Assembly: GCA_964434115.1 (NCBI GenBank)
Contig: CAYSSX010000007.1
Span: forward strand, 82,734-146,733
Origin: an uncultured bacterium
Lineage (GTDB): Bacteria; Omnitrophota; Omnitrophia; Omnitrophales; Aquincolibacteriaceae
Direction of reading: 5' to 3'
DNA: 64,000 nt
Part shown: piece after piece, positions 39,001 through 60,000 of the stretch
How the letters are laid out: each line of letters opens with the position of its first letter
Numbering within the stretch: the stretch's first letter is position 1
The notes under the pieces: model-generated
Seen by the model: only the letters and a program-made list of their open reading frames with translations
Told to the model about the DNA's origin: nothing
Databases searched by the model: none
Made by a program: the position numbers and the translations under genes

Positions 39001-42000
39001 AAAAGTCTACACAGCCAGTCTGTCCAGTATGGTCAATGGGACCTTGACCATCGGCACGCTGAAACTCACTCCCACTTTTGCGCATGATGACAACGACTTC
39101 TTTAAAGTGAATTTGACGTTGGATCCTGTCACGGGTGAAGGTTCATTCAGCCTGGGTGCACGTCCCAAAATGGCGCAGAAAATTTTCGCAGGCGCTCAGC
39201 AGTTTACCTGGGGGGATGAGATCGAAGTTTCCATGCCGCACCGCCCGGACATGAAACTTAAGGGCAAGGCAACGGGAGCGGGCGCCTATGAGCTGGTGGA
39301 TGATGAGGGGAACATCTACACCGTTTCCGCCGCCGGCAATGAAGTTACGATTGACGGTAAAAAGTACAAGTCCCGTGTTTTCAAAAATGACGACCGCGGC
39401 GTCCTGACCCTGGATATGACGATGGAAGTTCAGATGGACAAAAACACCGGCAAATACTTTGTGGACAACCAGGGCGTCCGCGTAGACCTTGTCGATGGCG
39501 CTACGTTCACGTGGAACGGGGAAGACTTTAAAGTTTCCATGAAAGACGAAGGCGGGGGCTTCCAGATCAACCTCCAGAAAACAAGCCTGATCGTAAAAGC
39601 GCCTATCGGCGGCCAGCTGGACCGCCTTACCGGCAGGCCGGTGTCTTCTGACATCCGCCTTGACTGGGATGACACGCTTGGTAAGTACGTCTTCAACGGG
39701 GATCCCGCGCATCCGAAGCAGGTGGCCGAAAATGGATCGACCCTTATCATTGACGGCATGAAATACAGCGTCAGTATCCGTACCGGCCTTGACGGCCAGA
39801 CCCTCATGACGATTACCACGGGTGTGGCCGCGGTCACCGCCATGACGCTTGAATCCCGTTATGTCAGCAACCAGCTTTTGCAGAACCAGGCCGATCCGTT
39901 CAGTCAGCAGGATTCCTCACACTCTGCGGTTTATACGGATGAAAACGGCCTGCGCGTCAAGGCCATCGACGCCAACGGCAGCGTTACCCGTTACTATTAT
40001 TCCCGCGATCCAGTGACCGGTGCGATTCTCCGGGCGCCGAACCTGCAGCCGCAGGAAACCTATGTGGTCATGCCTAACAACATCATCCAGATCCTGGGTT
40101 CTGAAGGGGAACTCCTTGTCACGCTGGATTACAACAAGGAATCCTCGGAAGATCTCACCAAGAACATGAAGGTGGATTTCTGGGATTGGAGCGCTGTGCC
40201 GCCCGTGCTCCGTAAAGGCGTGGTCCTGAACACATTCATGACTGACCCGTCGCGCTTTCACCTTCCGCTTTTTGCCGGATTGGACACTTGGCTTAAGGAT
40301 GTTTCAACCGCGGGTACGCCCGGGACCGTGCGTCCGACCGTGCATTTCTTTGAATATGACCGTGACCCCAAGACGGGAACCATTATGCGTGATGTCTACG
40401 GCCGCCCGATGCAGATGCTGGAAAAAACGACGGACCGTGAAATTCCTCCGTACGGGACGAAGTTCGGCTCCGACTACCTGGACAAAGTCAGCACCCTTTA
40501 TTATGAAAGCGGCGTGCTGATCGGTCAGGACACGGAAATCAAGGATCCTAACGTGGAAGCCGAACTGGCGGCTGTTACGCCTGCCCCCGCATACGCGGAT
40601 TACAAGAAATTCCGCCATGTCCGCATTCGCCCGGATGGCGTGATTGAAACCATTGAAGTAAACCAGAAAGATGAGAACGCTTACCGCACTCAGTGCGCTG
40701 GCGCCGACAAGAAGCAATGCGGTGACCTTCTTTATGTCAGAAATGATGTGCTTCGCATGAAATTTGACCCGGCCACCGGAACGCTTTCGCAGATGGGGAA
40801 GAGTTCGACAACGGACCCGGATTTCTACGCTCCGCTCAGTTTTGGCTCATTTGATTTTCAGTCCACGCTCCTCACGGAAAATCAGATGCTGGTGAAGCGC
40901 ATGAGAAGAAATAACAGCACCAATGAATTCCAGCCGGAACTCAGCCTGCTTTATGAAAGGGCCAAGAACACAGACCCGTGGGTACTCACCAAGGTCATGA
41001 ATGATGCGACCGGAACCATTACCATTCCCAAGGATCCTTCCAGCTACAGCCGTCTGCTTCTTTCAGGCTATGTGGACGCTGCGGGCGCCGCGACAGGCGA
41101 CACCTATGCGGGCCGGGATGTTTATGGGATGCCGGCGAACTGGAACGCACTGCCTACGGCCGATATTACCAATGGCCTCGTCCCGTTCACCTATTACCTG
41201 AAACCTCCGACAGCCGCGGAAGAGAAATACTACATCGAACAGAGAAACCGCCTGCAGTATGCGCTTAATGGCGGTATGGGATTCCAGACGCTCTACCGGG
41301 GATCTACGGAAATGTACGCGCTGGGAACAAGCCCGGAAGATCCTGATCGCAGCGTGACCTTCAACGGTGCGGGCACCGATTACAACCTGGCCGGGTATGC
41401 CATCTCGCGTCTGGGCGGTGTCGAGCGAAACCGCATGACTGGTGAGATTTTTGACACTCTGGTCAAGAATCCTGACGGCGGTCTTCCGATTGAACTTCTG
41501 AATCTGCGTTTCACGCAGGAAATGAACAGCGGTCTTCTGAAGTATGCCGTGGATGCCGGCAACCATAACAATTTCAACCTGGGAGTCATTGAGCGCTGGG
41601 ACCTTGACCTTAAGCCGCTGGACGCCGCCGGAGGTATTGAAAATTCTGCGAACCGCGTTTTTGATACGCTTTATAACAATGCCAAATCCAAGGCCACTTT
41701 TGGTCCGCCGCTTGAAGTGACGGATGAAATCATTCACCGTGAAATTGATTGGCTCAAGGAAGATTTGAGCCGTCTGACCAATGAGAAAGACACGGAATTC
41801 AAACGGATCATTGATGAGTTGTTAAACGGCGCGGCTCCTGGGGACGGTCTTCGCGCCATTGAAAACATGGTTGACCGCGGCGGCTACTATCAGATCAGCG
41901 GTTTTGCTTTTACGGACCAAATGCCGCCGACCGTGGTACTTGATGACATTGCTAAGGCGTACCAGAAAATTGCCGCGGCACGCGGCGGGTCCATGGCTGG

Positions 42001-45000
42001 TATGGCCGGTTTCCTGCAAGGCCTTTCTCAGAATGGCGGCCAGAATATTGGTAACCTGCCCGGTTTTGATGAGCTGAACCGCCGGTCAGGTTATGGCCAG
42101 GCTCTTTTCGGATACTTCTTGAATATGACCATGCTGGCCATGTCTTTCCCGGTCATGATGGGCCTTGCCGGCGGTCTTTCCGGGCTCGGCGTTGGCGCTG
42201 CGATCGGTGAAGCCATTATGGAAGGCGCTTTGATTGCCCCGGACGCCAATATCATTTCTCCGCGCTTTGAATCCACGGACCAGACCGTCCGCCAGATTTT
42301 CAACCCGGAATACTGCTATCCGCCTGATCCGGAATGTCCCACGGAAATCGAACACCGCTGGACACTCAAGGTTCTTAAGGGCTATGCGACAAACCTGACG
42401 GAGTACGTGACCAAGTACGATCAGCCGCTGGATTCCATTGACCCTGTGCTTAAGGATGAAAAAGATGAAACCGGTGACATGGCCAATTCTTTCCTGGATG
42501 AACGGGCGCGTGAAAACAGCAGTCTTGCGCACACGATTGAAAGGTATGTGACCGACCGGTTAAAAGAAATCGAGTTCAATAAAGAGCTTTGCGATACCAA
42601 GGGGGTCTGCGACGCGGACCTTATTAGAGATCCGGATAAAATCGGTATGCAGGATTTCCTGGAAAATTACCTCTGGGAAGAAGATACCGCCTACATGAAT
42701 GTCAACGGTCCGCATGCCGGCCGTGAACAGGCCCGCCAGATGCTGGCCGTGTTCCCGTTTATGACCAAGGAGTTTTACAATACGACGTACGGCGCCAAAC
42801 CGGACAGCGAGGCCTTGGGGCTTTTGGCAGATATCGTGGATTATCAAGTGGCAGCGCTGACACCCCGAAAAGTGGAGTGGGGTCCGCCGCCTTCATCCTC
42901 CGGCGGCGGCACGGGCGGCCCCGGAAGCCCCGGCGGCTCGACGACGACGACACCTCCGGGTGGAACCATGACCGGCTCCGGTTCCGCCGGCTCGGGCATA
43001 CTTTCTGCCGTATCCTGCAATGGAAATCCGAACTGCAAAGTGGTGAGAAGTGAGCTTGTGGGGCCTCCGAACCCCGCGCTTCAAGGCCAGTTTGAAGCCC
43101 TTGATATGAACGAGAAGATGGAATGGCTCCTTGCCGGCAAAGTGAAGCTGGTTTTCAGCGACTCGACGTGGCTGGGCAAGACTATTAAAGACATGATTAC
43201 TAAGACCAAAGTTTACCAGGTCGAAAAAGACGCGGAGTTTGACACCTTCCTTGAGAAGGTTGGTTTTACAACGGCAACAGATTCGACCAAGTTTGATGAG
43301 GTGATGGGCCTTCTTACGCACAACATTGTGACCACGACGACGGACGAAGCTTCCCGTGTGGGCCAGTTGAGCCTTCTTGACGAGGTCCAGAATGAATACC
43401 GTTCTTATATTGAAGAACGGCGCATGGAAGCCAAACGCACAGCCACTCAGCAGGCGGAAGAAAGCCTCAGGCGCAGCGCCAACCTTGTCGGCGGTTACAA
43501 GGCCGACATCATGCAGGCCACTGACCTTGTGGCCTATGATCTCAATGAGACCCGGAACCAGGATTTGCGCGGGTTTGTCCGCTATGAAAATGGCGCGGAA
43601 CCTGCGGCCGATGCCTCAGCCGAAGAGTGGGAGAAATACTGGAAGGAAACCAAGTTCACCACCGGCTGGACGGAAGTTCCCTCCACGCTCCAGTCGCTGA
43701 TTCTGCCTTCTGAAAGGATGATACTCCCGACCGATGCCGAAAAGCGCGAAAGCGGCGTTGCCGGCCCTGACCTTCAATATGCGCTGGGCAACCTTGACCG
43801 TTATGAATACGACGTTGAAAAACTCTTTAAGCAAAGCCTTGAAGCGATCAATAAACTGACCACTGAAACGGTCAACGGCCTCAAGGAACATGCGGCCACT
43901 GAACCGCCTGTCCGCATTGCGGATCTGCAATACACGTCGCCTGATGAATCCGGGCCAATGAGCCAGTTCTTTGCCAAATACATGGATACAATCTGGGAGC
44001 AGGGCCGCACGGATTATGACGGCACTCTGACCGGTGATATGTCGGTCCGTCTGTCCAAGATTGACAGCCTGACCCGTGACATCTCGGGCTTCATGGAAGA
44101 ACTGCTGTCGAATCCGACGAAGACTCTCAATAGCACGGGAGACAATGATTCGCCGCTTCTTAAGATTGAAGATTATCTGGCCAAACTCCGCGAGCTGGAT
44201 AATTCGCTTCTGCTTTTCCAGGAAACCAAACTGAAGCGCGTTTATGACAGCAATGTTCTCGGCGGCAATCCGGCGGATGAGGCCATCACGGGCCTTGGCG
44301 ATATTTTCGATTTCAAGGGAACGACCCGCTACGGTAAAGACCAGGCCACGCATGTCCTCGACTTTGTGTCGAGCCAATACAACCGCTATGTGGACATTGC
44401 CCGCGCTCTCCTCACCGGGTATGAACAGATCCGCAAGCAGAATGGCCTGAATCTTGCGACCGAAGAAATTCGTTTTGACCTTGAGACCGTTGACCTCAGC
44501 CTGAAACTTGACGAAATCCAGAAAGTGGACCCTGAGCGCGCCGTCAAGATCCTTCAGCTGCGCAACCAGGCGCTTTCCATGATCCGGACCAATGATGCGG
44601 TGGCCAACTCCATCGCCTTCGCTTCCGCGGCCCGCTACATCATCAACCGTGAAGTGGCGCGTAATCAATTCTACAAACTTGCCAAGGAAGACGGTCAGAA
44701 GGTCAGCGATCTTGACCCGGCGTACTACCTCGCGTTCCAGGGCGGCAAGTGGGTCGCTACCGGCGGTGACAAGACTTTTGAAACAGACGGTGCGTTTATG
44801 GCCGAATACAAACAGTTCCTGCGTGAAGAGCTGGCGCCGACCAAGGCGTATGTGAACCATTACGTCATGGAATCGGTCGACGATCTCAATAATCGCGATG
44901 ACGCGATGGGTGTTGATGAAGCCGCTGCGGAAGAGGCCCGCCGCGACAGCCACGAATTGGAAAGGCTCAGCGACCCGACAAGCGATTACGCTGAAGACGT

Positions 45001-48000
45001 GATCAAGGACAATGTGAAGCCGGGCGTCAACGTGTTTGAAGAGTATGAATCCAAGGTTTACCGGGAAGTTTACGCTACGAAGATCGGTACGGGCGGCAAG
45101 ATGCTGGCCGACAAATTCGATGAACTTGAAAAGAAGGCTGCAGAATGGCTGAATGCCGCCGCCAAGCGCCGTGTGGAAGAGGGGATTGAGGGTGAAGCCC
45201 GCTTCCAGCAGTCCATCCGCGCGATCAAGGAGTACAAAATCGCTTACCGCGATTACCTCATCCGGTTCCTGAGAGGCGATACCTCGGAAGTTTTTGGAAA
45301 TCCGTTTGATCTTCCCGTGGGAACTCCGATCGAAACGCTCGAAACCGGCGACTTCGGCATCCTTCATAACCTCAGCCTGTATCTTTCCAAAGATGAAAAT
45401 TGGGAGATGACGATTGGCAAGGCCCTGAAAGACCAGTACGGCATGTATGAGCTGGTTGATCCCAAGGGCGCGGATGTCCAGAGCAACCGCCGCTATATTC
45501 TGGACGCCTCCGCGGCCAAGGAAACGGACAATCTCCAGACTCCGTGGGATGAAACCTTGGGCATGCCTTATCAGGATGACAGCTACAAATCAGTCCAGAA
45601 AGAAGTCTTGGTGCGCGGTGATGAAGCGGAACTTGTCATGGGAGAAGAACTGACCCGCCTCGTAAACAATTACGATTCCTGGTTTGACCAGATGGTGGAT
45701 GCGTACCGCGGAGGACTTTCCTATTTTGAAATTAACCAGACTCTGACGCCGGGAGCCGCCGCGGCTGCCCCGGTCACGCCCGGATCGATTCCCGCGGGCC
45801 TTGATATGCAGGCGGCGCGCGAATTGAAATACATGGAAATGCTGGGCAGCTTCCACCTCGGCCAGAGCCTTGCCGGGGCCACGCCCGCGACGGCCGAGGA
45901 TGCCGCGCTGTTCAACAACTTTAAGGCTTCCGTGAACGCGCAGTTTACGGCGGCCGGCACGAGCTACGGTATCAAGAAGAGCAAGGATTTCTTTGATGCC
46001 GTGCACGAAGAGGCCCTGAATATTTACGAAAAATTCCTTTTTGGAGATCCGGCCGACCCGACGCAGCCGGGTGCTTTGACGGAATACCGCAGCGATGTTC
46101 AGAGTCTCTATGAACTTGTGAAAGGTCTCGACAAGAAGGTTTCGAACATCCGTCAGCTGAAGGATGTGGCGCCCGTGGCGCAGGCCCTTGGAGAAGAAAT
46201 TTTCAGCCAGATTTACGACGTGATCCGCAACCTCGGCAATGAAATGCTTCGCGAGCAGATCGTCTATAACCGTCTGCTGATCCTTAAAATCAACGCCCAG
46301 AACTCCCTGAACAATTTCTACATTGAGAAAGTGCGCAAGATCATCACGATCATGCAGCAGCTCACGGCGGGCCAGTACACGAAGTTCTTCTCTCTGCCGA
46401 GAGACTGGTGGAAGCCGTTCTACGCGGGCGATTTCGGGCGCTTTACGGAAAGCGGACGCGATAACTTTATCCGTGACGCGATTGCCGCTCCGCTCGGCCT
46501 CAACTATAACGGCAGCGAAGATGACCGCAATAAGGTTTATCAGGAAATGGGCTTTATCGTCCTTGATTCCCTGACCAATCACGCCTTTGAAATGGGCGCG
46601 ACCAACCAGGAAATGGCCCTGTTTTCAACCGTTGCCGAGATTTTCGGCGAAAGCGTCGGGCCGATCAAATATTTCGACACGAAGAAAGACTTTGACGACA
46701 AGATGAATTACCTGCGGCAGGGCGGAAATCCTAATGACCCGCGCGGCCAGAAGATGACCACCCTTGAAGTCCTCGCGGAATGGCTGGACAAGGGCTTTAT
46801 CACGGAACAGGAATTCTTCAACTACACGGACCCGCACACGGAAACCAAGACCAAGGACGTGAACGTCATTATCGATATGATCCGCTCTTTGGCGGTCTTC
46901 GGCGAGAACCGTTTCAATAATATCATCGTGGGTTACGAGGACGGCATCCCCATCATCAAGAAGACCTATGGCAGCTATGAAAAGAAGATGGAAGAAATCA
47001 AGCGCAAGATGCTTCTTGCCGGCCGGCGTTTAGGCAGTGACGGAACGGTCCGCTTTGACGGCCCTGCCGCCGCTGATACGGCCCGCCGCAACGAAGTGCT
47101 TTCCGACCCGCGCATCAAGGCCGGCGAGGAAATCCGCGGAGACGGACAGCTGGCGAACATTTACAACGAAACCGGTGATTTCAGCGTCATTGTCGCTTCG
47201 CATGCCGATTTCTTTGACGGTACCGACGTGGCGAAGATCGTGACCCGTCCCAAAACGCCGGGTCTTTATGAGCTGGCAAAAACATTTTGTAAAGATACCA
47301 TCGGTGCGGATGGCGCGGACTGCAAAGCCTTGACCCGCATTAATGATCCGGGCGATCCCTGGAACAACGGGCGCTATGACTACACCGGTGAGTTTGAAGA
47401 TCTGTTCCTGGAAGGCGGCGCAGGGGACACGGGCGTCGGCTTGATCAACAGCTATTACAGCTCGGGTTCTGACGAGTGGGAATCCTATGTGCCGGACAAC
47501 TACGGCGGCATTTCAAGCGGCGCGGGTATCCGAGTCAGAACCAATTACGGTATTGACGCCCTGAAGAACAAGGAAGGGTATCTGGACATCATGCACGCTC
47601 TCATGAGCGGCGAATATGCCTCCGGAGATATTGACCCTGTGCTCGGTAAATTCCTCTACGGCTTAGGCGGTGAAAGCGGTATCGCGTCCCTGAACAACAA
47701 CAAGGAAGCCGCCCTGGAAGAAACCCTCCGGGCCATGCGTCTCAAGATTCAGCGGGATTACACGGAAGGCGGCGGCGCGGTTGAACTTTTGGCCCGCGAC
47801 GCGACGCATGTGGCCAATACGGTCCAGAAACTTTATGAAGACACCGTGGCCCGTATTTCGGACTTCTATGAAAACGGATCCGCGGCAGGTAAGGTGGAAG
47901 ACGGTAAACTTCTCGATGATTTCTCCCTGAACGGCCGCCGGAATCTTTCTGACTGGTCCTACAACTTAATGTTCAACTTCTCTGATTTTGATCCGCAGAA

Positions 48001-51000
48001 GTTCACCTCCAGCTCGAACTATGATTACCTGGCGGTTGAGGCGGATCAAGGGCTTAAGGAAATCGGTCTTCTTTCCGAGGCCCGTGACGGCGGCTTCGCC
48101 TCACGTGCTCGGGCTTACCAGAGCAAGTCGATTTTCCTTTCGGAAACCCTGACTGAAATCAACGCCCTTGAAGAGCGTGTCAAAGCCCACGTCACGCTTT
48201 CCGCCGACGGCCGTGTGCTTAACGGAGGCCTGCACTCCAGCGAAATCTGGGCCGGTATTGAAGAACAGAAAAAAGCCCGCCTTCGTGAATTGGAACGTGT
48301 GGGCGCGATCACGGCAGAAGACATTGAAAAGGTCGAAGGCCTTGTGGCCCTGACCGAAGATGAAGCCAAGCTTCTCAGCCTTCTGAATCAGGCGCAGGTT
48401 GCGGTTTCTCTTGTCGACAACCGCGACAACCAGGTGAGAAAAGTTTTCCAGAGCGGCCTTGCGATTTTGGAACAGGTCTTTGCCGGCAAGACAGGCGGCG
48501 CGTTGATCAGTGAAACCGTACGTTCCCTGCGTGAAAACGGCCTTATTGATGAACACACCCGCCAGGTCCGTCAGGAACTCCAGCGTGACAAGTACGGTGT
48601 TGCGCATTTGGTGGAAATCACAGAAATCACCAACAGCGTAAGCAATGCCGCAGGTGAACGGGCTGTTACCGGTTTTTGGGTGAACACAGTGGGTGAGCCG
48701 CTCAAACTGCAGGATTGGGACAGCTTCACGATTGATAAACCGTATGAAACCGTGCGTCTGCACAAAGATATTTTTGAACAGATCTTTGATTCTATTAAAG
48801 AAACACTGCAGCCAGTTTGGGACTATGTCCTGAAGCCTGTGGTGGATTACTTGACATATGTTAAAGATTTTTGGGTTGAGCAATGGAACAACTATGTGGT
48901 TCCTGCCGCGAACTGGGTTTGGAACAACGCGATTGCCCCTTGGGCCGTGCCCCTCTGGAATAATGTCGTAAAGCCTGCAGTAGAAACGGTTGGAGGATGG
49001 ATTAAAGAGGGGGCGGCTTGGGTTGGTAAGCAGATTGTTGCGGGTCTTGAAATCGCACGTGATTTTCTGCGGCCTATTGTGAGCGAAGTTGGCAGCTGGA
49101 TTAACTGGGCGGGACAGCAAGTCGTGGCTGCGTGGAATTGGTTTGCGTCGACAGAATTAGCCAACTGGTTGGTGAATGGTGAAGGTATTCTCCACACTCT
49201 GGCTTGGGGAGCCATTATTGCCGGATCTTTGTTGATTGCGCCTTCATGGTTTATTTACGCAGCCGTAGGAGCGGGTGTCCTTGCAGCTGTTGCCAATTCT
49301 GATTTCGAAGCAGGCTTTGTTTCGTTGATGAATGGCATGATCAACTTTACGAATAACGCCGTGAGAGTTGTTAATAACACCGTCGATTTTGTCAATAAAA
49401 TCATCAATAGCAAGAGCCCGGTTGAGGTGCTTAGTCACCTTGGGCATGCCATTAAGGATATCGGCGATTGGATTACCGCGAATATTGTTAGGCCCATTCA
49501 GAGCGCTCTTGTTCATGCCGCTGCAGCTATTCTCCGCTGGGCAGAGGCGAATCCCGAAATGGCGATAGCCGTTGCTATTGGCGTGGGCATCGCCTTGATT
49601 GCGCTTGCGATTGCGGGAGCGATCTTTTTTGCTCCCTTGCTTTTCGCGGCAGCCGGCACGCTCTCCTTTGGGGCGTCCATCCTGGCGACCGTTCTGACCG
49701 TATCCCTTTTGACCATGACGCTCGCCGGAATCATCCTTTTAGTGGGTGGAATTGCCGCGTATAACCAGGGTTCTCTTGCCGATAAAAAAGCCGTGATCAT
49801 GGCCACTTACACAGCCGCGATTCTGCTTGTGGGAAATATTTTGGGCGTGGGAGAACATGATTACAAACGGATCATGGGTAAAAATAATATTGTCACCCAG
49901 AACATCGCACTCATGAATAACCTGGCTCAGAACAGCTTTTATCTTTCCCTGGCTCTGAATCTGGCACTGATTGGCGGTTTTGTCGGAGCTGCCTTTGCCC
50001 TTGGCGGCGTAGGTTTTCTTCTTTTGATTCCTGCACTTCTGATCGGTGCAGCCACGCTTGCAGGCGCTAATTTCTTTACCATGACAGGCCTTAAGTTTAG
50101 TGGCGTTTTGGGTCTTGCTGCGGATGTAATTCTATTTATCGCCAGCATGAAACTTTCCGGCTGGTCAACCGGTGTTTCCAAGAAGTTCGCGAGCATGGTC
50201 CCGGAAGTGACCAGCACGTTCCGGGGTATGCTGTCTGCTATCGCGGGCCGAATCCTGGGGACGGTTAAAGGATTGCTTGGCTTTAAAGGAAACTGGATTT
50301 TTGTCAAAGCCATGGTGGCGCAGACGCTTTCAACCGGTTCATTTGCCCTTTCTTTGAGACTTTGGATGAACATGATGTTCAGCGGCGCCCAGGCCACGAT
50401 TTCAAGTCTTGGTACCTTGATGAATTTGATTTCGGCGGGTTCGGGCAATGGACTGGTCAACTATGATATTCGTCAGAATTTGTTTCAGATGGCCAACGCT
50501 CTTAAACAGTACGCAAATCCGTCGAATAAAGAGGCGTCTGCGTTCGCGAAATTTTTCGCCAATCTTTTGGGCGGTTTTATCAGTACCGCCCTCCATTTGG
50601 GCAATATCAGCGGGGAGTCGTCACTTTTGACCTTCCTTCATACCATGCCCCTTGGGCCCGCGTTGTTCTTGCTGGGTCCCATGGGTTTGTATTTGGGACA
50701 GAAATTCGGGCTCAGTTTCCTGAACGCTATCCCGGACATCAGCCAGAAGGCGATCCAGATGGGAAGTCAGAATTTCCTGGCTAACTTCATCGGCCAGGGA
50801 TTGAAGGGGTTCCTTGACGAAGTGTTTGTGGAAGGTATTGGCGGCGATGTGACGGAGTTGCTGCTTATTACGATCGGAGTTGACAAGGATGCCGCACAAA
50901 CTCTTGCCGAGCAATTCGCAGAATTCCTTTCTATGGGCGGTGAAGGCGGCGCGATTAGCACCAGTGAAAACCTGGCCGCGCTCCGCGATTTTATGGGCAC

Positions 51001-54000
51001 GGCGGATTATCAGCAGTTGATTACCAATATGGGCAGTGCAGACCTTGACGCTGTGGCAGGTCTCTTTAAGGATGCGAAAGATTTCCAGGCCTTTGTCACC
51101 CAAACCCTGGGACAGGCCGGCGGCCTTGAAGTTTTGAAGAAAACAGCGGATGTCGCTGCTACCCTCCGGGCTGTCAAGGGCCTGGATGGTAACGAAGTTC
51201 TGGAAACACTGGGTGAGAATCTTAAACTGACCAAACTCTCGGATGTTTACAAGGATGGCGGCACTGACGGACTGACGAAATTTGTGTCCCAGATTTCCAA
51301 CACCAATGTGTTTATGGCTGCGGCCAAGCTTGCGGGAACACAAACAGCGACTCAGGCAGCCAATATCCCGTCGCAATTCCATACGGAACACTTTTTGAAT
51401 AATCTTCGGGACACTTTGGCATCGACCCAGGCTACCCGCGCGTCACCCGCGATTCCGCAGGCCATGCCGTCATCTCTTCCGCTTTCCCCGGGAACCGCCT
51501 CAATTCTTGGAAATACACTCGTGAATCGTTTTGGACTTATCGGAGGCTCCATCCTGGAAGGAATGTGGGAAGAAAGCGCGTTCCGCGGCGTGCTTGCTAT
51601 TGGCGCGACCCTGGCGGCTTCGTTCCTGACAGGCGGTCTGGCCTTAGGGCTTGTGCTTGGCGGCATGGTGGTGGCTCAGGCGCTTGTGTTCGCGGCGCTT
51701 CATAATAACGACTACCACGGCACATTGTCTCTGGGGAACTTCATGGGACTCTTTGCTTTTGGCGTTGTGGCCGGCGGCCTGGTCACCGCGATTACGCTTG
51801 CCACGGGCGGGACTTTCCTGGGTATTGCGGGTGCTATCGGTGCGGCCGCCACTTTCCACACCGCCTTTAATATTATTCAGCGGTTCAACAATTCCACCGG
51901 CGTGTCCAGCTTCTTCTCAGCTTTTCTCAATCAGGCCGGTTTTGTCTTCTCACCGTTGATTCTGCCTCTGCTTTCGCTGTCAGGCACCATGCTCACCGCG
52001 CTTGCCGGGGCCGCGGGTTTTGTGACATCGCTTTTGGGCGGCCTGGGCTTCCTGGTGGGATTGACGGGCATCTTCAATATGCTGCAGGGACAGCTGGTGA
52101 ACCTGCCGCAGGTGGCGCCTGACCTGGTCCGTTTGGATAATTTGAACTTCCTTCTCGGCCAGTATTCTCTGCCTCAGGTTGTAAGCCTGTTCCGCATGCA
52201 GGGCTTTGATGCTGAAACACTCCGCGTGGCGCTGGTTCAGTACACGCTGAGTACCAATTTCAGCAAGTTTGATTTCGGCCAGCTTGCCATTGCCTTGATT
52301 CAAGGCTATCAGGGCGTTCCAAATTTTGATCTTGCTGTGCTGGTTCAGAACTTCCTCGCGGTTCCGCAAATTCAGGTAGATGCGGCCAATTTTACATCGC
52401 TCATTCACGGCCTGCTGCAAAGCGGCGTGAACATTGGGGAAATCACGCAGCTGATCGCGTTGAGCTCTTTCCTGCAGAACAGCAATTTCAGCTCTTTACA
52501 GGTCATTACGGCGCTTCTGACGCTCCCGAATATCGGACACGACCAGATTGTGGACATCCTGGGCGCCTTAGTCCAGCTGCCGGGAATTAACGACACCAAC
52601 ATTAATGACATTATCAGCAATATTCGTGCGGTGCAGGGACTTGACCTTGATTTGTCGGAACTCGCGGGTATCCTGGTGCAGTTTAATAAATTCTCGATCC
52701 CGAACCTGGTGCAGGTTTTCGCCGGCCTTGTGGATTTCGCGAATATTAAAGTTGAGGACCTTCAGAATCTTGTCCTTGTCTTTTCATCGGTGGTGGACCT
52801 TTCGGACCTCCAGAACTTGACGGATTTTGTCACAGTGTTTGCAGGCAATGTGACAGACATTGCCCAGCTCCAGAAGCTGATCAGCAGCTTCACGAACCTG
52901 AACGTTCCGATTGTGAATGTGGTTCAGGTCTTCCTCGGGCTTCCCAATTTGCAGGGCCTGAATTTTGTGGACCTTCTTACGGTATTTACCACGATCCCGA
53001 ACTTGAGCAATACGGATCTCGTTGATATTTTCAACGCCTTTTCCACACTGGGAACTTTCCAGGGACTTACCGCCGTCGGTATTTTGAATGCCCTGATGGC
53101 TGGCAACTTTGCGAATGTTCCAGGCTTTACGGGCGCGAATTTACTTCAGATTCTGGACCTTTTCCGTGACCTGAATTCCTTTAAAGATCTGAAGGCGCTG
53201 GATATTGCGAACATCTTCAAGGCGATTCCTTCCCTGACAAGCCAGGACATCGTGAATCTTATGAATCTTTTGACAGGGTTTACCACGATCAACGATATCG
53301 TGGGGCTCGCCAATGCTCTTGTGGGTCTGGAGCAGCTGACGCAGGATGATGTGATCCGCCTCGCCAATCTTTTGATTATCAACATGCCGCAGGCCGCGGC
53401 CCTCGATGCTGCAGGACTTGCCGCGCTCGCGGATATCTTTAAAGCAAAAGGCCTTGATGATCTGCACATGATCCAGATCGCTCAGGTCTTTGCCGGCATT
53501 CCGAATCTTGACTCCACGAAAGTCCTGGCGCTTCTGTCCGTGTTTATGTCTATACCGTCCCTGCAGACGGAAGCGAATCTGCTTCAGCTGGCGCAGATTT
53601 TTGCCGGCGTCCCGGGCGTTGGCCTTGTGGATATCGCGACCGTGTTCCTTAACCTGCCCAATCTTTCCGAAGCGGCGGTTCTGGGTTTTGCCGGCATTTT
53701 CGCAGGAATCATGAATGCGAATGTCAATGTGAGCGTTCTGGAAATCCTGGGCGTGCTGAACCTCTTCTCGAGTGTGCCCAACATCAACATGGTCAATCTT
53801 GCGAGCGTGTTTGCCGGAGCTTTCACCGGCAATGAAAGCTCGCTGCTCATGCTGGCTCAGTTCTTTGCGGGCAAAATCAATGCGGGCGACCTTCAGGCCC
53901 TGACCCAGCTGCTTAAAGTCTTCACCGATATCCTGAGCCTGAACAACATGACGCAGGATGGGGCTGTGGACCGTCTGATCACAAGCTTCCTCGGCAATTC

Positions 54001-57000
54001 GAATGTTTCGATCGTGGATCTTGTGAAAGCGTTTATGACGCCGGAAAATCTTGCGGATGCGAATTTTGCCCAATCCCTTGCAAATCTCATGGCCCTCAGA
54101 ACCAGTGCCATGACGGTCCAGGAGCTCCAGGATATCCTTGGCGTCTTTGTGAACCAGGGGAGCATCAATTTGTTGAATCTTGTCGGAATTTTTGTGGACG
54201 CTCTTCCTGCGGGAGATCTGGACGCCCTTAAATTCCTAGTGCTCGGCTTCTCGAATTACCGGAATGTGGGACAGCTTTCCGAGCTTTCCGAATTGCTTGA
54301 GTTCTTTCACACGGCAGGCGTTGACATTCTTGACCTGGCGAACGCCTTCCAGGTCCTTCCCATGGTCCAGGCCGACATCCGGGGTTTTGTGGGGTTGTTT
54401 GCCACGCGTTTTGCGGACCTCAGCATCATTCAACTGGCTGGACTTTTTAATCTCTTCAAGTCCTTAAAGGACATTGACGGCAATAATTTTACGCTTGAGA
54501 CGCTTGTCGATATTTTCAAGGGAGTTGTGGACATCAATGATTTGAACAACCTTGGCAAAATCCTTGAATCTCTGTCCCAGATCACGAACCTCAATGATGC
54601 TGCGCAGTTCACGGAACTGTTCAATGCTTTCGCTGCCGCTCAAGTGAATTTGGCGGATCTGCTGTTTGCCTTCGGCACGCTCTCGAATGTGACTTTGACC
54701 CAGACGCAGATCCTGCAGCTGGCCAATTTGGCCGCGCTTGCAGCCAAAAAACAGGGTTATTTCACAAACGCGGCCGAGCTTGCCCGCATTTTGGACGTCC
54801 TTTCCAATCTGGGACTTTCAGCCACGGAAATTGCAGGCGTCCTTCTCGCACAGATTGATGTCACGGACAGCGCTCAAATGGCGCAGATCCTCGCGGCCTT
54901 TGCCCGGAATACGGACCTGTCGGTTCCGGCAAACTTGAGCGCGATCATGAATGCCTTTGCCGCGAATCTTGACCTTACAAACGTCCTTGAGCTCTTCAGC
55001 CTTTTTGAGGCTTTCAATACTCAGCAGGGTGTCACTTTCCCGGCGTTTACTCAGGCCTTTGTGAGTATCCCCGGTATTGTGACCATGCCGCAGGTCTTTG
55101 AAGAACTGGCCGAAATGCTGGCCCACCGGTATATGACCGACTCAAATTTCAGCGCTGCTGATATGCAGGCCGTCATTGATATTCTGATGAATCAGGGCAA
55201 TGTTTCGCGGGTGGCAATCCTCCAGCGTTTCATGCGCAACATGAACGTTCAGGACATCAATGACATGGCGCGTCTGGCCGCGGCTTTTGAAAACGCAGTC
55301 ACAAATGAAGCTGATTTGAGAAGCCTTATCAATGACTTTTTGGCCGCAGGTTTCACCGACCTGGGTAATGTCATCGCTGGAATTTCAACGCTCGGCTTCT
55401 TCTCTGATTTCAACAATCTCAAAGTGCTTGCGCTTGTGGCTGCACAGCTTCTGGATTATACGAGCGGGGATATTGAAGCAGCTGCCGCACGGGTGTTTGG
55501 CGCGATTGCCAGCCGCATGGACATGGGCGATAAAGCGCAGGTTCTGGCGATGCTTGAGATTTTTGCTAATAACGCGCTGCTGACGCTGCCGGAATATGCG
55601 ATGGGTATCCTGGTGAAAGCGTTCTTTGCCCAGGTGAACATCACGGATGCCAATGCCGTGAAGACCCTGGTGGAAGCTTTCTCGGAATTCTATCATTTGA
55701 CCACGGACGCGGCGAACCTTGACGTCTTTATTGCGGCCCTGTCGCAGGCGGGCCTCTCTCTCGGCGCTGTCGCTGAAACGCTGGCGGGCCTTCCGGGAAT
55801 GAATGCCTTTATGCTTGCCAACTCCATGGCCAAGGTTGCGCGGCTTGAAGATATGGAAGCCCTGATGAATGCCTTTGTCCGTGACGGGCGCCTGACTCTG
55901 GCGCAGTTTGTCGTCGCGGTGGCGTCGGCCCAAAACGTCGATATGGTTGAGTTTGCGCGTCTGATTGCCCCGCGTGTGGACGCTTCCAACCGCGAACAGC
56001 TCCGGATCATTATTAACGTCCTTCACCTCCAGGGCGGTGTTTCCTTTGTGACGCTTGCCGGAATCTTTGTCGATGCCGGAAAATTGAGTGTGGCTGAAAT
56101 CGCGGATATCTTCGGCCGTGAAATCGATGAGGCAAGCGTGAATGACATGATTACCTTCTTTGTCAGCAAGGGCTTGAGCCTTCTCCAGATCGCCCAGATC
56201 TTCATTAATGGCCAGGCGGACAGCACGACCCTGACCATGGAAGATCTTGTGTACTACTTCGGCGGTTTTGTGAACCAGCAGGATCTTGGAAGTTTGATCG
56301 ATCTCTTCCTGGCCTCCGGCAGTATCAGCATTATTCAGATTGGTCAAATGCTTCTGAACGCCACGAACGCGAATGTTACGAAAAACCAGATGGCCCGTGC
56401 CGTGATCTCCCGCGCCGGCATCGGCGATGTCATCGGGCTTTTTGGGCTGATTTGGAACTTCTTCTGGAACCAGAGTGTTTTTGGGTTCCTCGAAACGGCC
56501 CGCCTCTTCTTTGACGCGCTGGCCATGCCGCTGATTAATAGGCTCTCGGTGCTTGCGTCCGTCTTCAAAGCGTACTCGCAGCCCTATTCCGGAGTCGTCA
56601 AACTGAGTCTTGAAAACGGGTTGACGCTCGAAGACGCGGTCAAGAGTTTGAGTGAGCAGAATGTGCCGCTTGTGGACATCGTCCGCGCGATTCAGGCCGA
56701 GCTTCCGGGCATGAGCCTTCTGGATATTTCGAAAGTTCTTTATGACGCGGCCAAAATCAAGGGAGCGGCGATTTCCCTTCAGGACATCGTAAATCTGTAC
56801 AGAGATACGTTTGGTATCGATTACCGGCTTGTGATCAAGGCGATTTTTGGAATTGATACCCTGCCCGGCGGTGTCGTGGTGACTCAGCCGATCCGAGCCT
56901 CGGACATTGAAGCGGCTGGAACGATTCTGAATACCGTAAACCAGGCGACCCAACCAGCGGTGTCTAACAATAACGTGACAGTATCCCGCGATACGGCGAC

Positions 57001-60000
57001 AGTGACAGCCATTGCCCGTGCTGTGGCAACGTACGGAGTCGAACGAGCTCAGGAGATTGTGCAAGCTCTTCAGACCATCGCTGCCCAGGGAACCGTCGTG
57101 GTTGTGACAACTCAGACCGTGGATCTTGTTCAGCAGGTAATTCTTGACCGGGCCGCGAAACAGGAGAATGTTGCCCAATTGGCGCAGAATGCGGCCCTTG
57201 CGGTTCAGATCCTTCAGCAGGCGAATGTGACTCTTGGCGCGCAGGCGATTCCCATTACACCGGCGCTCATCAGCGGCGTGGTGGATGTGATTCAGCGCGT
57301 GGATGTGACCGTGACGGCTGCGAATCTTGCCCAGGCGGTTGCGGCGATTCAGCTGGTGGTGCCTGCGGGAACAACTATTACGGCTGCTCAAATCGCCGCG
57401 ACCATTGTTGCCATTCAATCCGGTGTGTTGGTGCAGGATATTACTCTCGCCAGTATTCAAGCCGTTCAGGCGATTCTTGACTCGAAAGACAAGGCGATTG
57501 ATGTCACAAAGATTACTGCTGTGGACATCAAATCTGTCGAAGCGATCCTTGTTGTGAACCCGGCGTTCCAGATCACAGCCGCGAGCATTGCCGCGGTCAA
57601 TATTCTGATCGAAAAAGGTCTTGCGGTTCAAACCGTGGAACGTATTGAAGCCGCGGTTCAGCTTGCGGCTGCGAAAATAGATATCGTGGAAGCCAGTGTT
57701 TTGGCCGCGGTCCAGGTGATCAGCTTTGGCTTGAAGGTCGATGTTGCGACTCTTCAGGCGCTGACTGAGGTCACGGGCGGCCTGACCCAGGTCACTGCGA
57801 CCAATATTGCGCTTGTGGCTGCGATTATCCGTTCAGGGGTTGCGGTCACGGACCTTGCTCAGTACATCGTGGCCAATGGCAGCGGTATTCAGATCATTAC
57901 CCCGCCTGCCGGGACAGCACTTAACATCCAGATGGGAAATGTTCAGGTCCAACTGCCGGCGGACACGGTGTTCCAGGTCAATCAAGCGACCGGTGAATTG
58001 ACCTATAAGGTTCCCGATATTGGCGGTCTTGTTACGATCGGCAGCCATTCTCAACTGGCCCTTGCCGGCGGTACTCAGGTGACGGTCAACCGCAACGGCG
58101 TGATGACTTATCAGGTGGCCGGAACCACGACCCAGATCGGCGGAGTAACGCTTGCGGCCAACACGACGATTACCGTGAACTCTCTTGGAGCCGTGACGGT
58201 GACCGGTACCAATGTGATTAATCTTGCTGGAAATACCGTGACTGTGACAACGATTAATGTCACGGAGCAGGGAGCTGTTCAGTACACGCTTCCCGCCGCG
58301 ATTCTTGTCAATGGTCTCGTGGTTCCGGCAGGAACCACGGTTTCTCAAACCGCGACAACTGTGGAATACACTGCCGTAGCCGACCTTACAGTTCCGGTCA
58401 ACGGCCAGAATGTTGTGCTTCCCGCCGGGACAATCTTTACGCTTTCAGAAGCAGGCCTTGCGATCAAGGTTTCGGCTGTGGAACAGACGATTACCGTGGC
58501 GGGTGAAACCGTGAAGATTGCGGCCAATGCCCAAGTCCTTGTGCTGGGTCAGGAAGGCGTGAAAGTGGTTGAAGGCACTGTGACTCTCGGCAGTGTGGTG
58601 GTTCAGCAGGGTGTGACGTTTACGGTCAGCACGGTGAATGGAACCGCGGCCGCAGTGGTGACGATCGCGGGCCAAGCCGTGACCCTGACGAATAATGTGC
58701 AGGTTTCTGTGGTGAACGGCGTTACGACGATTCAGGGTACGAATGTCGTGGGACAGGTGGTGGTAGGCACAACGGTTTATCAGGTCGCGGCCGGCACTCA
58801 GCTCACTTATACCGCTCAGGGAGCTCTTAAGATTGAGAGCGCTGCCGGTACGGTCATGGTCACCGAAGGCACCCTCAAGATCGAAACCGGCGGCCAAGTG
58901 GTGGAAGTTGCGGCGGGCGTTCAGATTGTTAAAACCCAGGACGGTATTTCCTTTGTCAATACGGGAGCAGCTGCCACAGTTGTCAAAGTCGGGACAGGCA
59001 TTTTGGATGTGTCCGGGTCTGGAAGCATCCGCGTGGACAGCAATGGCAATGTGATCGTCACAGGCGGGAATGTCAGTGTCACGGGACCGACAGCCGTGAC
59101 CATGCGTTTTGGTTCAGTGACGACAGCGATCAGCGCGGGAACTCTGGTCAATGTTAATGCTCAGGGGACGGTTCGGATCACGGCGGCCAATTCCCAGATT
59201 GCGGTCGGCAGCATGGTGGTTCCACTTGCCACAGGCATCAGCGTTTCGATTGATACGCAAACCGGCAAAGTGGCCGTGATTTCTGAAACCGCAGGAACCG
59301 TACTTAATGTCGGCGGCACTGTGATTAACACCACTCCGGGTGTCACGGCAGTGATCAACACTCAAAACGGACAGGTCGAGCTTACGGCTGTTTCCGCCGC
59401 TGCGGTCGTAACCGTCGGCGGAACGGTGGTGAATGTCAACCAAGGCAGTGTGGTTCGCGTGGATACGGCAGGCGCTGTCACCCTGGTTGCCGGAACCAAC
59501 GGCTCTGTCATTCAGGTTGCTGGCACTTCGGTGGTGGTCGGACAAAGCGGGGTGGTCAATATCGACGTTCAGGGTAAGGTTTCGATCGCGGCCCCTGTGA
59601 ACCGTACTTTGGACGTGACGGTTGGCACTACGGTTTATACGGTTGGCGCGGGAGTTCAGACCGTTTTTGAAAATAGCGTTCCGTCCTTCCATGCGACCGT
59701 GGATTCGAATGTGGTTGTCAATGGCGTCAAGGTGGAGGCCAAGGCCGGCACGGTCTTCGCTGTGGATGCCGCTGGTTCTATCAATGTTACGACCGGCGCC
59801 GTGGCCGTGGCTTCGGGTCCTGCCTCTGTGACGGTCACGATTCTGGGGCAGGTTTATGAGCTCGCTCAGGATTCCCGGATCGAAGTCAATACGCAGGGTG
59901 CTGTAACTCTTTCACAGGGCACTGTGGCCATGGTCGTGGATGTGAACAAGGCTCAAACGGTCAATGGCGTGACTTATACCGCCACGCAGGCCGCCACAAA

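Follow-up and report, generated by a model that had tools for sequence, protein, structure and literature searches.

An internal membrane core with a predicted CPBP/Rce1-type protease domain in a giant protein of Omnitrophota

The giant protein encoded in the 64,000-nucleotide stretch of DNA analysed here (the window), from an uncultured member of Omnitrophota, contains a genuine polytopic inner-membrane region built of two modules, and the second of these is predicted to be a divergent CPBP/Rce1-type intramembrane protease domain with all of its catalytic residues intact. We favour a reading in which the two modules are an anchor and a CPBP-type protease, with the topology and the self-cleavage proposed below, and we give this reading a probability of about 0.7. 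As a real transmembrane (TM) block and an intact protease domain are found together, this core probably anchors the giant protein in the cell membrane, where the protein is perhaps also cut.

The giant ORF and its membrane core

Frame +2 (from nt 2) is free of stops over 21,333 codons, while each of the other frames contains 168 to 1,257 stops, and thus the core (aa 16394-17362 of the ORF fragment) sits within one giant ORF (2..64000, + strand, as are all features below) that continues past both window ends. The first 5,000 residues encode 12 Dockerin_1 modules (E 3e-64) and one 3keto-disac_hyd (DUF1080) domain (E 1.5e-7). The C arm, downstream of the core (52088..64000), consists of helical repeats rich in L/A/V/N/F to aa ~18950, followed by beta-type repeats rich in V/T/A/G, with 3-5% K+R and no Cys, a composition resembling that of a secreted beta-solenoid. 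No Pfam family was matched by the C arm when searched as 400-aa tiles, and no more TM-grade segments are present in it within the window.

On the Hessa insertion scale, applied to non-overlapping 19-mers with a cut-off of summed dG < 3 kcal/mol, all ten qualifying 19-mers fall at aa 16,395-17,358 (nt 49,184-52,075), and none is found among the remaining ~20,300 residues. The Kyte-Doolittle scale gives the same picture, with peaks of up to 2.75 in the core. The integral membrane domain flanked by huge arms, proposed in the initial annotation, is thus borne out by both scales, and the 15-18 helices in two blocks suggested there were a fair estimate: by-eye counts give about 8-9 helices in block 1 and six in block 2, for a total of about 14-16 (14-15 of these firm), with a maximum of about 19 when the linker's four weaker amphipathic segments are included. 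Conservation in related loci argues against a chance origin of the core, its start being found in one (L012) and its protease block in another (L011). As to the charge-free runs separated by K/R-containing loops, from which the domain had been recognized, the loops do carry K/R (ADKK, EHDYKRIMGK, GLK), but the runs are not diagnostic, as the C arm possesses longer ones (86 and 85 aa) of low hydrophobicity; it is hydrophobicity, not lack of charge, that distinguishes the core.

The protease domain in block 2

Block 2 comprises six helices (aa 17190-17362), and the first four correspond to the predicted CPBP/Rce1-like intramembrane glutamic protease core (51530..51889), for which PF02517 is the best Pfam match. 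The EExxxR motif (EESAFR, 51569..51586, aa 17190-17195) would provide the catalytic Glu (E17190), the FxxxH motif (FAALH, 51689..51703) on the next helix the catalytic His (H17234), and the HxxxN motif (HTAFN, 51857..51871; H17286 and N17290), two helices later, the oxyanion hole, with the 'TG' turn ahead of the HxxxN helix retained. An extra two-helix hairpin (51938..52087) follows 3' of the protease core; it is absent from L011, where the repeat region starts directly after HxxxN. The earlier view of the core as simply an unusual anchor is therefore to be revised.

The match of the window domain to PF02517 (E 0.0094, profile positions 12-92 of 93) scores 16.7 bits, below the gathering threshold of 22.4 bits, and is visible only with a 120-aa query piece. 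The homologous segment of L011, the one, distant relative on which the block 2 comparison rests, scores 27.8 bits (E 3.1e-6), above that threshold. Its motifs are WEEVAFRG, FAAAH and HAGIN, and the two proteins, 36-43% identical over the protease domain, share every catalytic residue (E, E, R, H, H, N). The L011 match (tblastn E 2e-6) lies inside a collinear match set of ~4,000 aa, and beyond aa 16,192 the protease domain is the sole segment with significant similarity to L011, suggesting that it is under functional constraint; that catalytic residues persist in two proteins which cannot otherwise be aligned nearby is a signature of selection on catalysis. Among ten reference CPBPs, all keep motif 1, and the F and H of motif 2 and the H and N of motif 3 are invariant. 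When the window and L011 pair was compared with ten annotated CPBPs by hhalign, the three motifs were in register (P 2.9e-4, probability 40%). In the 21,333 residues the three motifs are found in this order just once; with 200,000 shuffles each, the ordered triple appeared in none for block 2 and in one for the 1,001-aa core.

Not all of the comparisons point to this family, and the resemblance could be coincidental, block 2 being just more hydrophobic helices of some other, unknown fold. The Pfam score of the window itself is sub-threshold, an HMM built from ten CPBP sequences matches the window weakly (5.6 bits, with 19 of 2,000 shuffles scoring as high), and the motif spacing exceeds that of the ten references (EE-F 40 versus 28-29, F-H 56 versus 35-48). 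Fold searches brought no confirmation: the AF2 single-sequence model of block 2 has a pLDDT of 52 and its Foldseek matches are meaningless, and a PDB profile search did not reach 4CAD or anything else relevant. With L011 above the curated threshold, the motifs invariant and in register, and the triple motif virtually missing from shuffled sequences, we regard coincidence as highly improbable. A different proposal would be that block 2 is a structural, scaffolding or immunity module that does not cleave anything, the whole core simply being an anchor. Some members of the CPBP family in bacteria may work without proteolysis, parallels being SpdC of S. aureus and the Abi-type bacteriocin self-immunity proteins, and block 1 is evolving fast, as expected of a mere anchor; the preservation of all six catalytic residues in the two proteins makes this proposal quite improbable.

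If the domain is indeed a protease, it may act in trans, in sorting or maturation of other proteins, be they partner surface proteins, secreted peptides or further copies of the giant chain, with the giant protein only carrying the enzyme to the right membrane site, in the way myxosortase, MroQ-type and bacteriocin-processing CPBPs work. The conserved catalytic residues would fit such a role, all characterised CPBPs use separate substrates (PMC11980579, PMC5874806), and no recognisable cis-substrate motif was found, the lack of Cys after aa 15774 leaving no place for a CAAX or lipid-Cys type signal. However, fusion to more than 21,000 residues would be an odd deployment for a general processing enzyme, and the giant gene fills the window and both related loci entirely, so that no neighbouring genes are visible and no candidate substrate can be named. 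We consider action in trans rather unlikely, and prefer the combination of an anchor and a protease acting on its own chain.

Block 1, the linker and upstream elements

Block 1 (49181..50149) is poorly conserved, its hydrophobic segments being at nt 49181-49294, 49547-49765, 49793-49852, 49937-50077 and 50093-50149. The first of these (aa 16394-16431) is either a single long helix or a short hairpin, aa 16516-16588 hold 2-3 helices in 73 residues without charge, aa 16646-16692 hold two helices, and strong hydrophobic segments are found at aa 16598-16617 and 16698-16716. No family in Pfam, NCBIfam or PHROG was matched by this block, and its AF2 single-sequence model is all helical, with low confidence (pLDDT 56). 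The start of the block is conserved in L012 (NPEIAAVLFAVFG versus NPEMAIAVAIGVG), while the first hydrophobic segment, aa 16394-16431, is absent there, and no alignment with L011 was obtained at E below 1. Directly after block 1 comes a K/R cluster (50150..50371), with 9 K/R versus 1 D/E in 74 residues, and the equivalent region of L011 is K/R-rich too. The inter-block linker (50372..51529) starts with weakly hydrophobic or amphipathic segments and then turns into a soluble, helical region of acidic character; it matched no family, and the equivalent linker of L011 holds no TM-grade segment.

Directly 5' of the first helix is a Trp-rich amphipathic region (48761..49180, aa ~16254-16393) that likely forms interfacial helices, judging by its sequence. 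It has a weak match to a PHROG tape-measure family (E 0.008), and in L012 a W-rich stretch likewise precedes the first TM segment. Within the 16,000 residues upstream of it, the core is preceded by another hydrophobic element, a segment of 37 residues, QALFGYFLNMTMLAMSFPVMMGLAGGLSGLGVGAAIG, at aa ~14033-14069 (42098..42208), with RR just before it. This weak but conserved segment (dG 3.28; 67% identity in L012) is the sole exception in an N part that is largely without TM helices, and it matches the N-terminus of ORF P0001 of L011 (MLPRRIRHIQ plus ~50 hydrophobic residues). As disulfide-type Cys pairs bracket it (13565/13573 and 14105/14112), it is probably a membrane hairpin or an interfacial element.

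Topology and proposed mechanism

Whether the two arms are on the same side of the membrane or on different sides was a question raised by the initial annotation, and the Cys pairs along with the K/R clusters tentatively favour opposite sides. All 40 Cys in the window are in 20 close pairs, the last at aa 15763/15774, and among relatives these pairs are gained or lost as pairs; the paired cysteines suggest a position of the N arm outside the cytoplasm, and the Lys/Arg clusters, by the positive-inside rule, that of the linker inside. The 12 dockerin modules, too, fit an N arm outside the cytoplasm. Block 2 appears to be built of hairpins, which puts the C-arm start on the same side as the linker, and the extra hairpin, absent from L011, would be an even-numbered insertion that leaves the side of the C arm unchanged. 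From helix counts made by eye and the positive-inside rule, we tentatively propose an extracytoplasmic N arm and a cytoplasmic linker, with the catalytic cavity and the C-arm start probably cytoplasmic as well. This arrangement is supported by the cavity of MmRce1, which has its opening ~10 Å from the surface closest to E140 (PMC5874806), and in L011 by K/R-rich loops on the EE/H/HxxxN side and a linker without TM segments. Against it, block 2 of the window is almost without K/R, and in canonical bacterial CPBPs the charge pattern is reversed.

That the two arms share a side is a real possibility, if short of an even one: both could be extracytoplasmic and only the linker cytoplasmic, or everything could be cytoplasmic with the blocks inserted as hairpins. 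The V/T/A/G-rich, Cys-free C arm, with 3% K+R, is similar to secreted beta-solenoids, AF2 segmentation of block 1 gives eight helices, an even number, the segment at aa 16394-16431 is missing in L012, and the orientation of canonical bacterial CPBPs would place the C-arm side outside. Against this stand the confinement of disulfide-type Cys pairs to the N arm, the K/R clusters flanking the linker and, in L011, also the C-arm side of the protease block, and the hairpin architecture of block 2, which keeps the linker and the C-arm start together.

In the preferred two-module reading, module 1 (aa 16394-16716), a bundle whose roughly 8-9 very hydrophobic helices evolve fast, would act as the anchor, and module 2 (aa 17177-17362) would be a divergent CPBP/Rce1-type glutamic protease of four core helices plus a lineage-specific hairpin. 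Block 1 would cross the membrane an odd number of times, leaving the N arm outside and the linker in the cytoplasm, and the helical hairpins of the protease block would keep its catalytic cavity, like the beginning of the C arm, on the linker side. The built-in protease may then cut a membrane-proximal segment of its own giant chain, and such cleavage, after membrane insertion, would separate or trim the arms.

Comparison with known systems

The closest comparison is with the 'Dockerin-type giant proteins' of Omnitrophota, with dockerin and DUF1080 domains, in which most of the N part is TM-free and a TM region is followed by intracellular sequence (West-Roberts et al., 2023; bioRxiv 10.1101/2023.11.21.568195). 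The protein described here shares with them the dockerin repeats, the DUF1080-type domain, the TM-free N part, the TM region and the sequence beyond it. In those proteins SecA-like and C39 domains come after the TM region, whereas neither was detected in aa 17363-21333, the part of the C arm within the window, past which the ORF extends. TM helices or a signal peptide are present in 94% of 916 very long proteins catalogued in a 2026 preprint. A CPBP domain is mentioned neither in that catalogue nor by West-Roberts et al. (2023); thus a TM region that follows a long N part without TM helices has been described before, while for a built-in CPBP protease we found no report. The classical giant adhesins (RTX/T1SS, sortase-anchored) also have very long repetitive extracellular arms and Ca-binding modules, but a terminal signal anchors or targets them, and here the membrane element is internal, polytopic and enzyme-bearing. 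The anchor, described earlier as unusual, is so against these terminally anchored adhesins, and not against the dockerin-type giant proteins.

With the CPBP family (PF02517; MmRce1, PDB 4CAD) the domain shares the three motifs in canonical order on successive hydrophobic helices, and it spans the Pfam profile almost end to end. It differs in its internal position, with more than 17,000 residues ahead of it in a chain of over 21,000, ordinary CPBPs being stand-alone proteins of ~200-300 aa, in an uncharged EE-to-H hairpin that is longer by 8-11 residues, in the loss of the K/R-rich turns of bacterial CPBPs, and in having a ~470-aa linker where the usual three N-terminal helices would be adjacent. 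One bacterial CPBP, the myxosortase MrtX, cleaves beside a membrane-spanning segment and sorts large surface proteins (PMC11980579); it is a separate enzyme of 239 aa recognising a lipidated Cys in a C-terminal tag, whereas no Cys is present near or after the core here.

The proposed self-cleavage has parallels. One example is PrsW, fused to polymorphic toxins as a proposed release peptidase (Zhang et al., 2012, PMC3482391), also a polytopic membrane peptidase, distantly related to CPBPs, that is joined to a large protein for proposed processing. In those fusions PrsW comes ahead of a small toxin at the C-terminus, while the domain here is of the CPBP type (FxxxH) and internal, with arms of more than 16,000 and more than 4,000 residues. 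Another example is the C39/S8 peptidase domains, proposed to cut giant proteins (bioRxiv 10.1101/2023.11.21.568195), and the processing of surface proteins by myxosortase would be comparable.

A more specific, and in our view doubtful, version of the mechanism is a cis-acting 'autosortase', in which the Rce1-type protease, with its cavity facing the cytoplasm, inverted compared to ordinary bacterial CPBPs, would cut at the membrane once the N arm has been exported, and thereby sever or release that arm from the cytoplasmic one. If true, the autosortase would represent a new principle in the biogenesis and maturation of giant bacterial proteins.

Membrane core of the giant protein

The window is occupied by one open reading frame (ORF), with no stops over 21,333 codons in frame +2, as against 168-1,257 stops in each of the five other frames (amino acid positions refer to this fragment, which is open at both ends). 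One minus-strand frame carries just 168 stops and stays open for as many as 815 codons at a stretch, probably a by-product of the codon composition of the giant sense ORF. The sole Pfam domains above threshold in the ORF are a DUF1080/3-keto-disaccharide-hydrolase-type lectin domain and 12 dockerin type I modules (nt 6029-6553 and ~8400-8700; aa 2010-2184 and ~2800-2900), a content that fits the Dockerin-type class of giant proteins (West-Roberts et al., 2023).

Hydrophobicity profiles bear out the polytopic transmembrane (TM) core that the initial annotation had placed in the middle of the protein, at nt 49,185-52,075 (aa ~16,394-17,357). On the Hessa scale, all ten of the non-overlapping 19-residue windows of the ORF with a summed dG <3 kcal/mol lie at aa 16,395-17,358, with none elsewhere, and Kyte-Doolittle averages reach 2.75 in the core, whereas the beta-rich repeats toward the C-terminus do not exceed ~1.8. 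A lack of charge does not by itself identify TM helices, as charge-free runs of 85-86 residues and low hydrophobicity are also found after the core. By our count, block 1 consists of 8-9 firm helices (aa 16394-16431, 16516-16588, 16598-16617, 16646-16692, and 16698-16716) and block 2 of six (aa 17190-17362), with four weaker amphipathic segments in the 470-residue linker between them, against which the earlier estimate of about 15-18 helices is reasonable. An AF2 single-sequence model suggests, at low confidence, eight helices in block 1.

Directly before the first TM helix lies a Trp-rich amphipathic repeat region (nt 48761-49180; aa ~16254-16393), comparable to a W-rich stretch in a closer relative, L012, and weakly matching a phage tail tape-measure PHROG (E 0.008), the sole PHROGs match obtained. 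The core is preceded, at a distance of 2,300 residues, by a conserved hydrophobic Gly/Ala-rich segment of 37 residues with RR in front (nt 42098-42208; aa ~14033-14069), which shows 67% identity to L012 and whose counterpart in a distant relative's locus, L011, is the N-terminus of ORF P0001. The part after the core (C arm) begins with L/A/V/N/F-rich repeats, helical or LRR-like, over ~1,600 residues (e.g., QVFAGxPNL; nt 52088-56851), and continues with >2,300 residues of V/T/A/G-rich beta-type repeats (nt 56852-64000). Pfam searches of the C arm, the linker and the region before the TM core, each cut into 400-aa tiles, returned sub-threshold noise only. A sharp compositional break is seen at the TM core, from window position ~48000 onwards, the AT skew moving from about +0.09 to -0.16, K+R from ~10% to 3-5%, and D+E from ~15% to 4-10%.

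A probable CPBP/Rce1-type domain in block 2

Three motifs recognized by eye in block 2, WEESAFRG, FAALH, and HTAFN, correspond to EExxxR, FxxxH, and HxxxN of the CPBP/Rce1-type intramembrane glutamic proteases, whose roles have been described (PMC11980579; PMC5874806). The ordered triple occurs once in the entire ORF, and shuffling produced it in none of 200,000 versions of block 2 and in one of 200,000 versions of the 1,001-aa core; of the ten residues of the block that are charged or His, five belong to the catalytic motifs. For the 120-aa protease core, the top Pfam match is PF02517 (Rce1-like; E 0.0094, profile positions 12-92 of 93), at 16.7 bits, below the gathering score of 22.4 bits. 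The homologous segment of L011 scores 27.8 bits with the same profile (E 3.1e-6), above the curated threshold, and it reads WEEVAFRG ... GFAAAH ... HAGIN, with all of the catalytic residues kept and 43% identity over the domain, L011 being the one relative with which block 2 could be compared. When the two sequences were aligned and compared by hhalign with ten annotated plasmid CPBPs, the match had P 2.9e-4, with the three motifs in register. An HMM built from the same ten proteins was weakly discriminating, giving 5.6 bits, a score at least equaled by 19 of 2,000 shuffles.

Other searches contributed less. No match for the TM core was obtained with Pfam and NCBIfam on pieces of 231-700 aa, or with phmmer against PDB; the Pfam negatives from long chunks are weak, since the CPBP domain itself was missed in these pieces. 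A PDB profile search did not reach the Rce1 structure MmRce1 (4CAD), and AF2 single-sequence models were of low confidence (pLDDT 52 and 56), with Foldseek searches against PDB uninformative. Taken from the sequence comparisons, block 2 is very probably a CPBP-fold domain (a probability of about 0.9).

The domain departs from ordinary CPBPs in a number of ways. The spacing from EE to F is 40 residues, compared to 28-29 in ordinary CPBPs, and that from F to the H of HxxxN is 56, compared to 35-48, with the extra residues extending an uncharged helix 4-5 hairpin. The ten bacterial CPBP references have two K/R-rich turns whose counterparts in the window are charge-free. While in ordinary CPBPs three helices precede EExxxR, none is adjacent here, the 470-residue linker being found instead. 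Two additional helices follow HxxxN in the window, but not in L011; as these make an even insertion, the C arm would still start on the same side of the membrane.

Relatives of the giant protein

Relatives were reached solely with the soluble pre-TM region as query. The TM core found no homologue in an exhaustive phmmer search of 1.84 billion representatives, in GTDB genome contigs, JGI metagenome contigs or viral contigs, or by tblastn in plasmids; neither did the 1,001-aa core or the 120-aa protease core in a word-indexed search of 5.8 billion clusters, nor the two-sequence protease alignment in JGI metagenome contigs. The soluble region just upstream of the core retrieved one protein, P0001 (E 4e-194), whose locus, L011, is NCBI contig CALNYI010000047.1 (GC 46%). 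In tblastn, the matches between the window and L011 are collinear along ~4,000 residues (34-48% identity), with a gap across block 1 and the linker that ends at the protease core, where window aa 17,173-17,291 match L011 nt 19,491-19,814 (36% identity, E 2e-6). This match is the sole significant similarity to L011 within aa 16,192-21,333, so that the protease core stands out as a constrained island while its surroundings evolve fast. The closer relative L012, from a GTDB MAG, is 62% identical over 3,064 aa as one continuous ORF that stops at the contig end just inside block 1 ('NPEIAAVLFAVFG...' vs 'NPEMAIAVAIGVG...' in the window), thus placing block 1 at the same position in that lineage.

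The giant gene of L011 is divided into three ORFs in three frames, with breaks at L011 positions 9900-10010 and 15675-15810. Around the second break, the new frame (frame 3) is already homologous to the window before the annotated ATG of the third ORF, which points to a frameshift rather than a real gene start or separate genes; an assembly error, a pseudogene, or recoding could explain it. We have thus dropped the reading of the third ORF as an independent protein devoid of a signal peptide, and with it the argument for a pre-TM flank in the cytoplasm. Further along the same ORF, ~1,300 residues after the protease domain (L011 ~23800-25727; ORF3 aa 2668-3309+), at least 12 further very hydrophobic helices form repeated hairpin modules with 'A-P-A/I-L' turns. 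No such downstream run of helices is found inside the window; two similar turns (FFAPLLF and LLIPALLI) are found in its block 1.

Topology

All 40 cysteines of the ORF fall into 20 pairs, spaced by 3-12 residues, from aa 2248/2255 to aa 15763/15774 (nt ~6743 to 47323), and none is present in the 5,559 residues that follow. Between the window, L012 and P0001, cysteines are gained and lost pairwise, which is how disulfides behave. Such pairs, along with the 12 dockerin modules, place the part before the core (N arm) outside the cytoplasm. As both flanks of the hydrophobic segment at aa 14,033-14,069 carry disulfide-type pairs, this segment probably forms a hairpin or an interfacial element rather than crossing the membrane once. 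Immediately downstream of block 1, nine K/R but a single D/E are present in 74 residues, and the counterpart region of L011, whose linker has no TM-grade segment, is also K/R-rich, suggesting that the linker is cytoplasmic. In MmRce1, the catalytic water lies ~10 A from the surface where the cavity opens (PMC5874806); with EE 13 residues into its own helix, counted from the linker side, the cavity of block 2 would be expected to open on that side, on which the short loops of L011 are K/R-rich. Block 2 being made of hairpins, the C arm would begin on the linker side as well.

We thus lean, by a narrow margin over even odds, toward a topology in which block 1 makes an odd number of membrane passes between an N arm on the outside and a linker on the inside, where the cavity and the start of the C arm would also lie, in agreement with the report on Dockerin-type giant proteins (West-Roberts et al., 2023). 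Caveats to this model are the uncertain helix count of block 1, the almost charge-free loops of the window's own block 2, and a C arm whose composition (V 18%, T 15%, A 13%, G 10%, K+R 3%) looks like that of a secreted beta-solenoid. The charge pattern of ordinary bacterial CPBPs is also the opposite one, and orienting the domain by analogy with them conflicts with the charges of L011.

Possible function and implications

If active, the protease domain of block 2 would cleave a membrane-proximal peptide bond, and by analogy its most likely substrate may be the giant chain itself, a suggestion we make tentatively, at somewhat below even odds. One precedent is the PrsW domains fused to polymorphic toxins, proposed to act as release peptidases (PMC3482391), and another is the C39/S8 domains, which have been suggested to fragment other giant proteins (bioRxiv 10.1101/2023.11.21.568195). 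A third is a CPBP enzyme, myxosortase, which sorts surface proteins through cleavage beside a TM helix (PMC11980579). Processing of other proteins in trans is a rival to such self-cleavage. Less probably, block 2 could be a non-catalytic scaffold or an immunity module, a proposal to be weighed against a catalytic set intact in both loci. The likeness to CPBPs may even be a coincidence, as the sub-threshold Pfam score might suggest; the shuffles and the score of L011 make this unlikely.

The view that the architecture is without precedent does not hold. In one catalogue of very long bacterial proteins, 94% of 916 possess TM helices or a signal peptide, and the layout of the Dockerin-type class is known, with a TM-free N part followed by a TM region and an intracellular part (bioRxiv 10.1101/2023.11.21.568195); internal multi-pass regions are normal among such proteins. 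Published surveys of giant proteins state 'numerous TM helices' and exclude those regions from structural analysis. A CPBP/Rce1 domain is mentioned neither in West-Roberts et al. (2023) nor in the paper on the 916 proteins, and a full-text literature search for CPBPs and giant proteins yielded the PrsW analogy only.

Recognition of the conserved island as a CPBP/Rce1-type domain with its catalytic set intact replaces a vague 'anchor' with a concrete hypothesis that can be probed by mutation and comprises three motifs, five residues and about 360 nt, through which self- or partner processing at the membrane becomes testable. The paired cysteines and the charges provide a first topological model, with the N arm out and the linker and C arm in, and the CPBP family would come to include a domain lying inside a giant multidomain protein.
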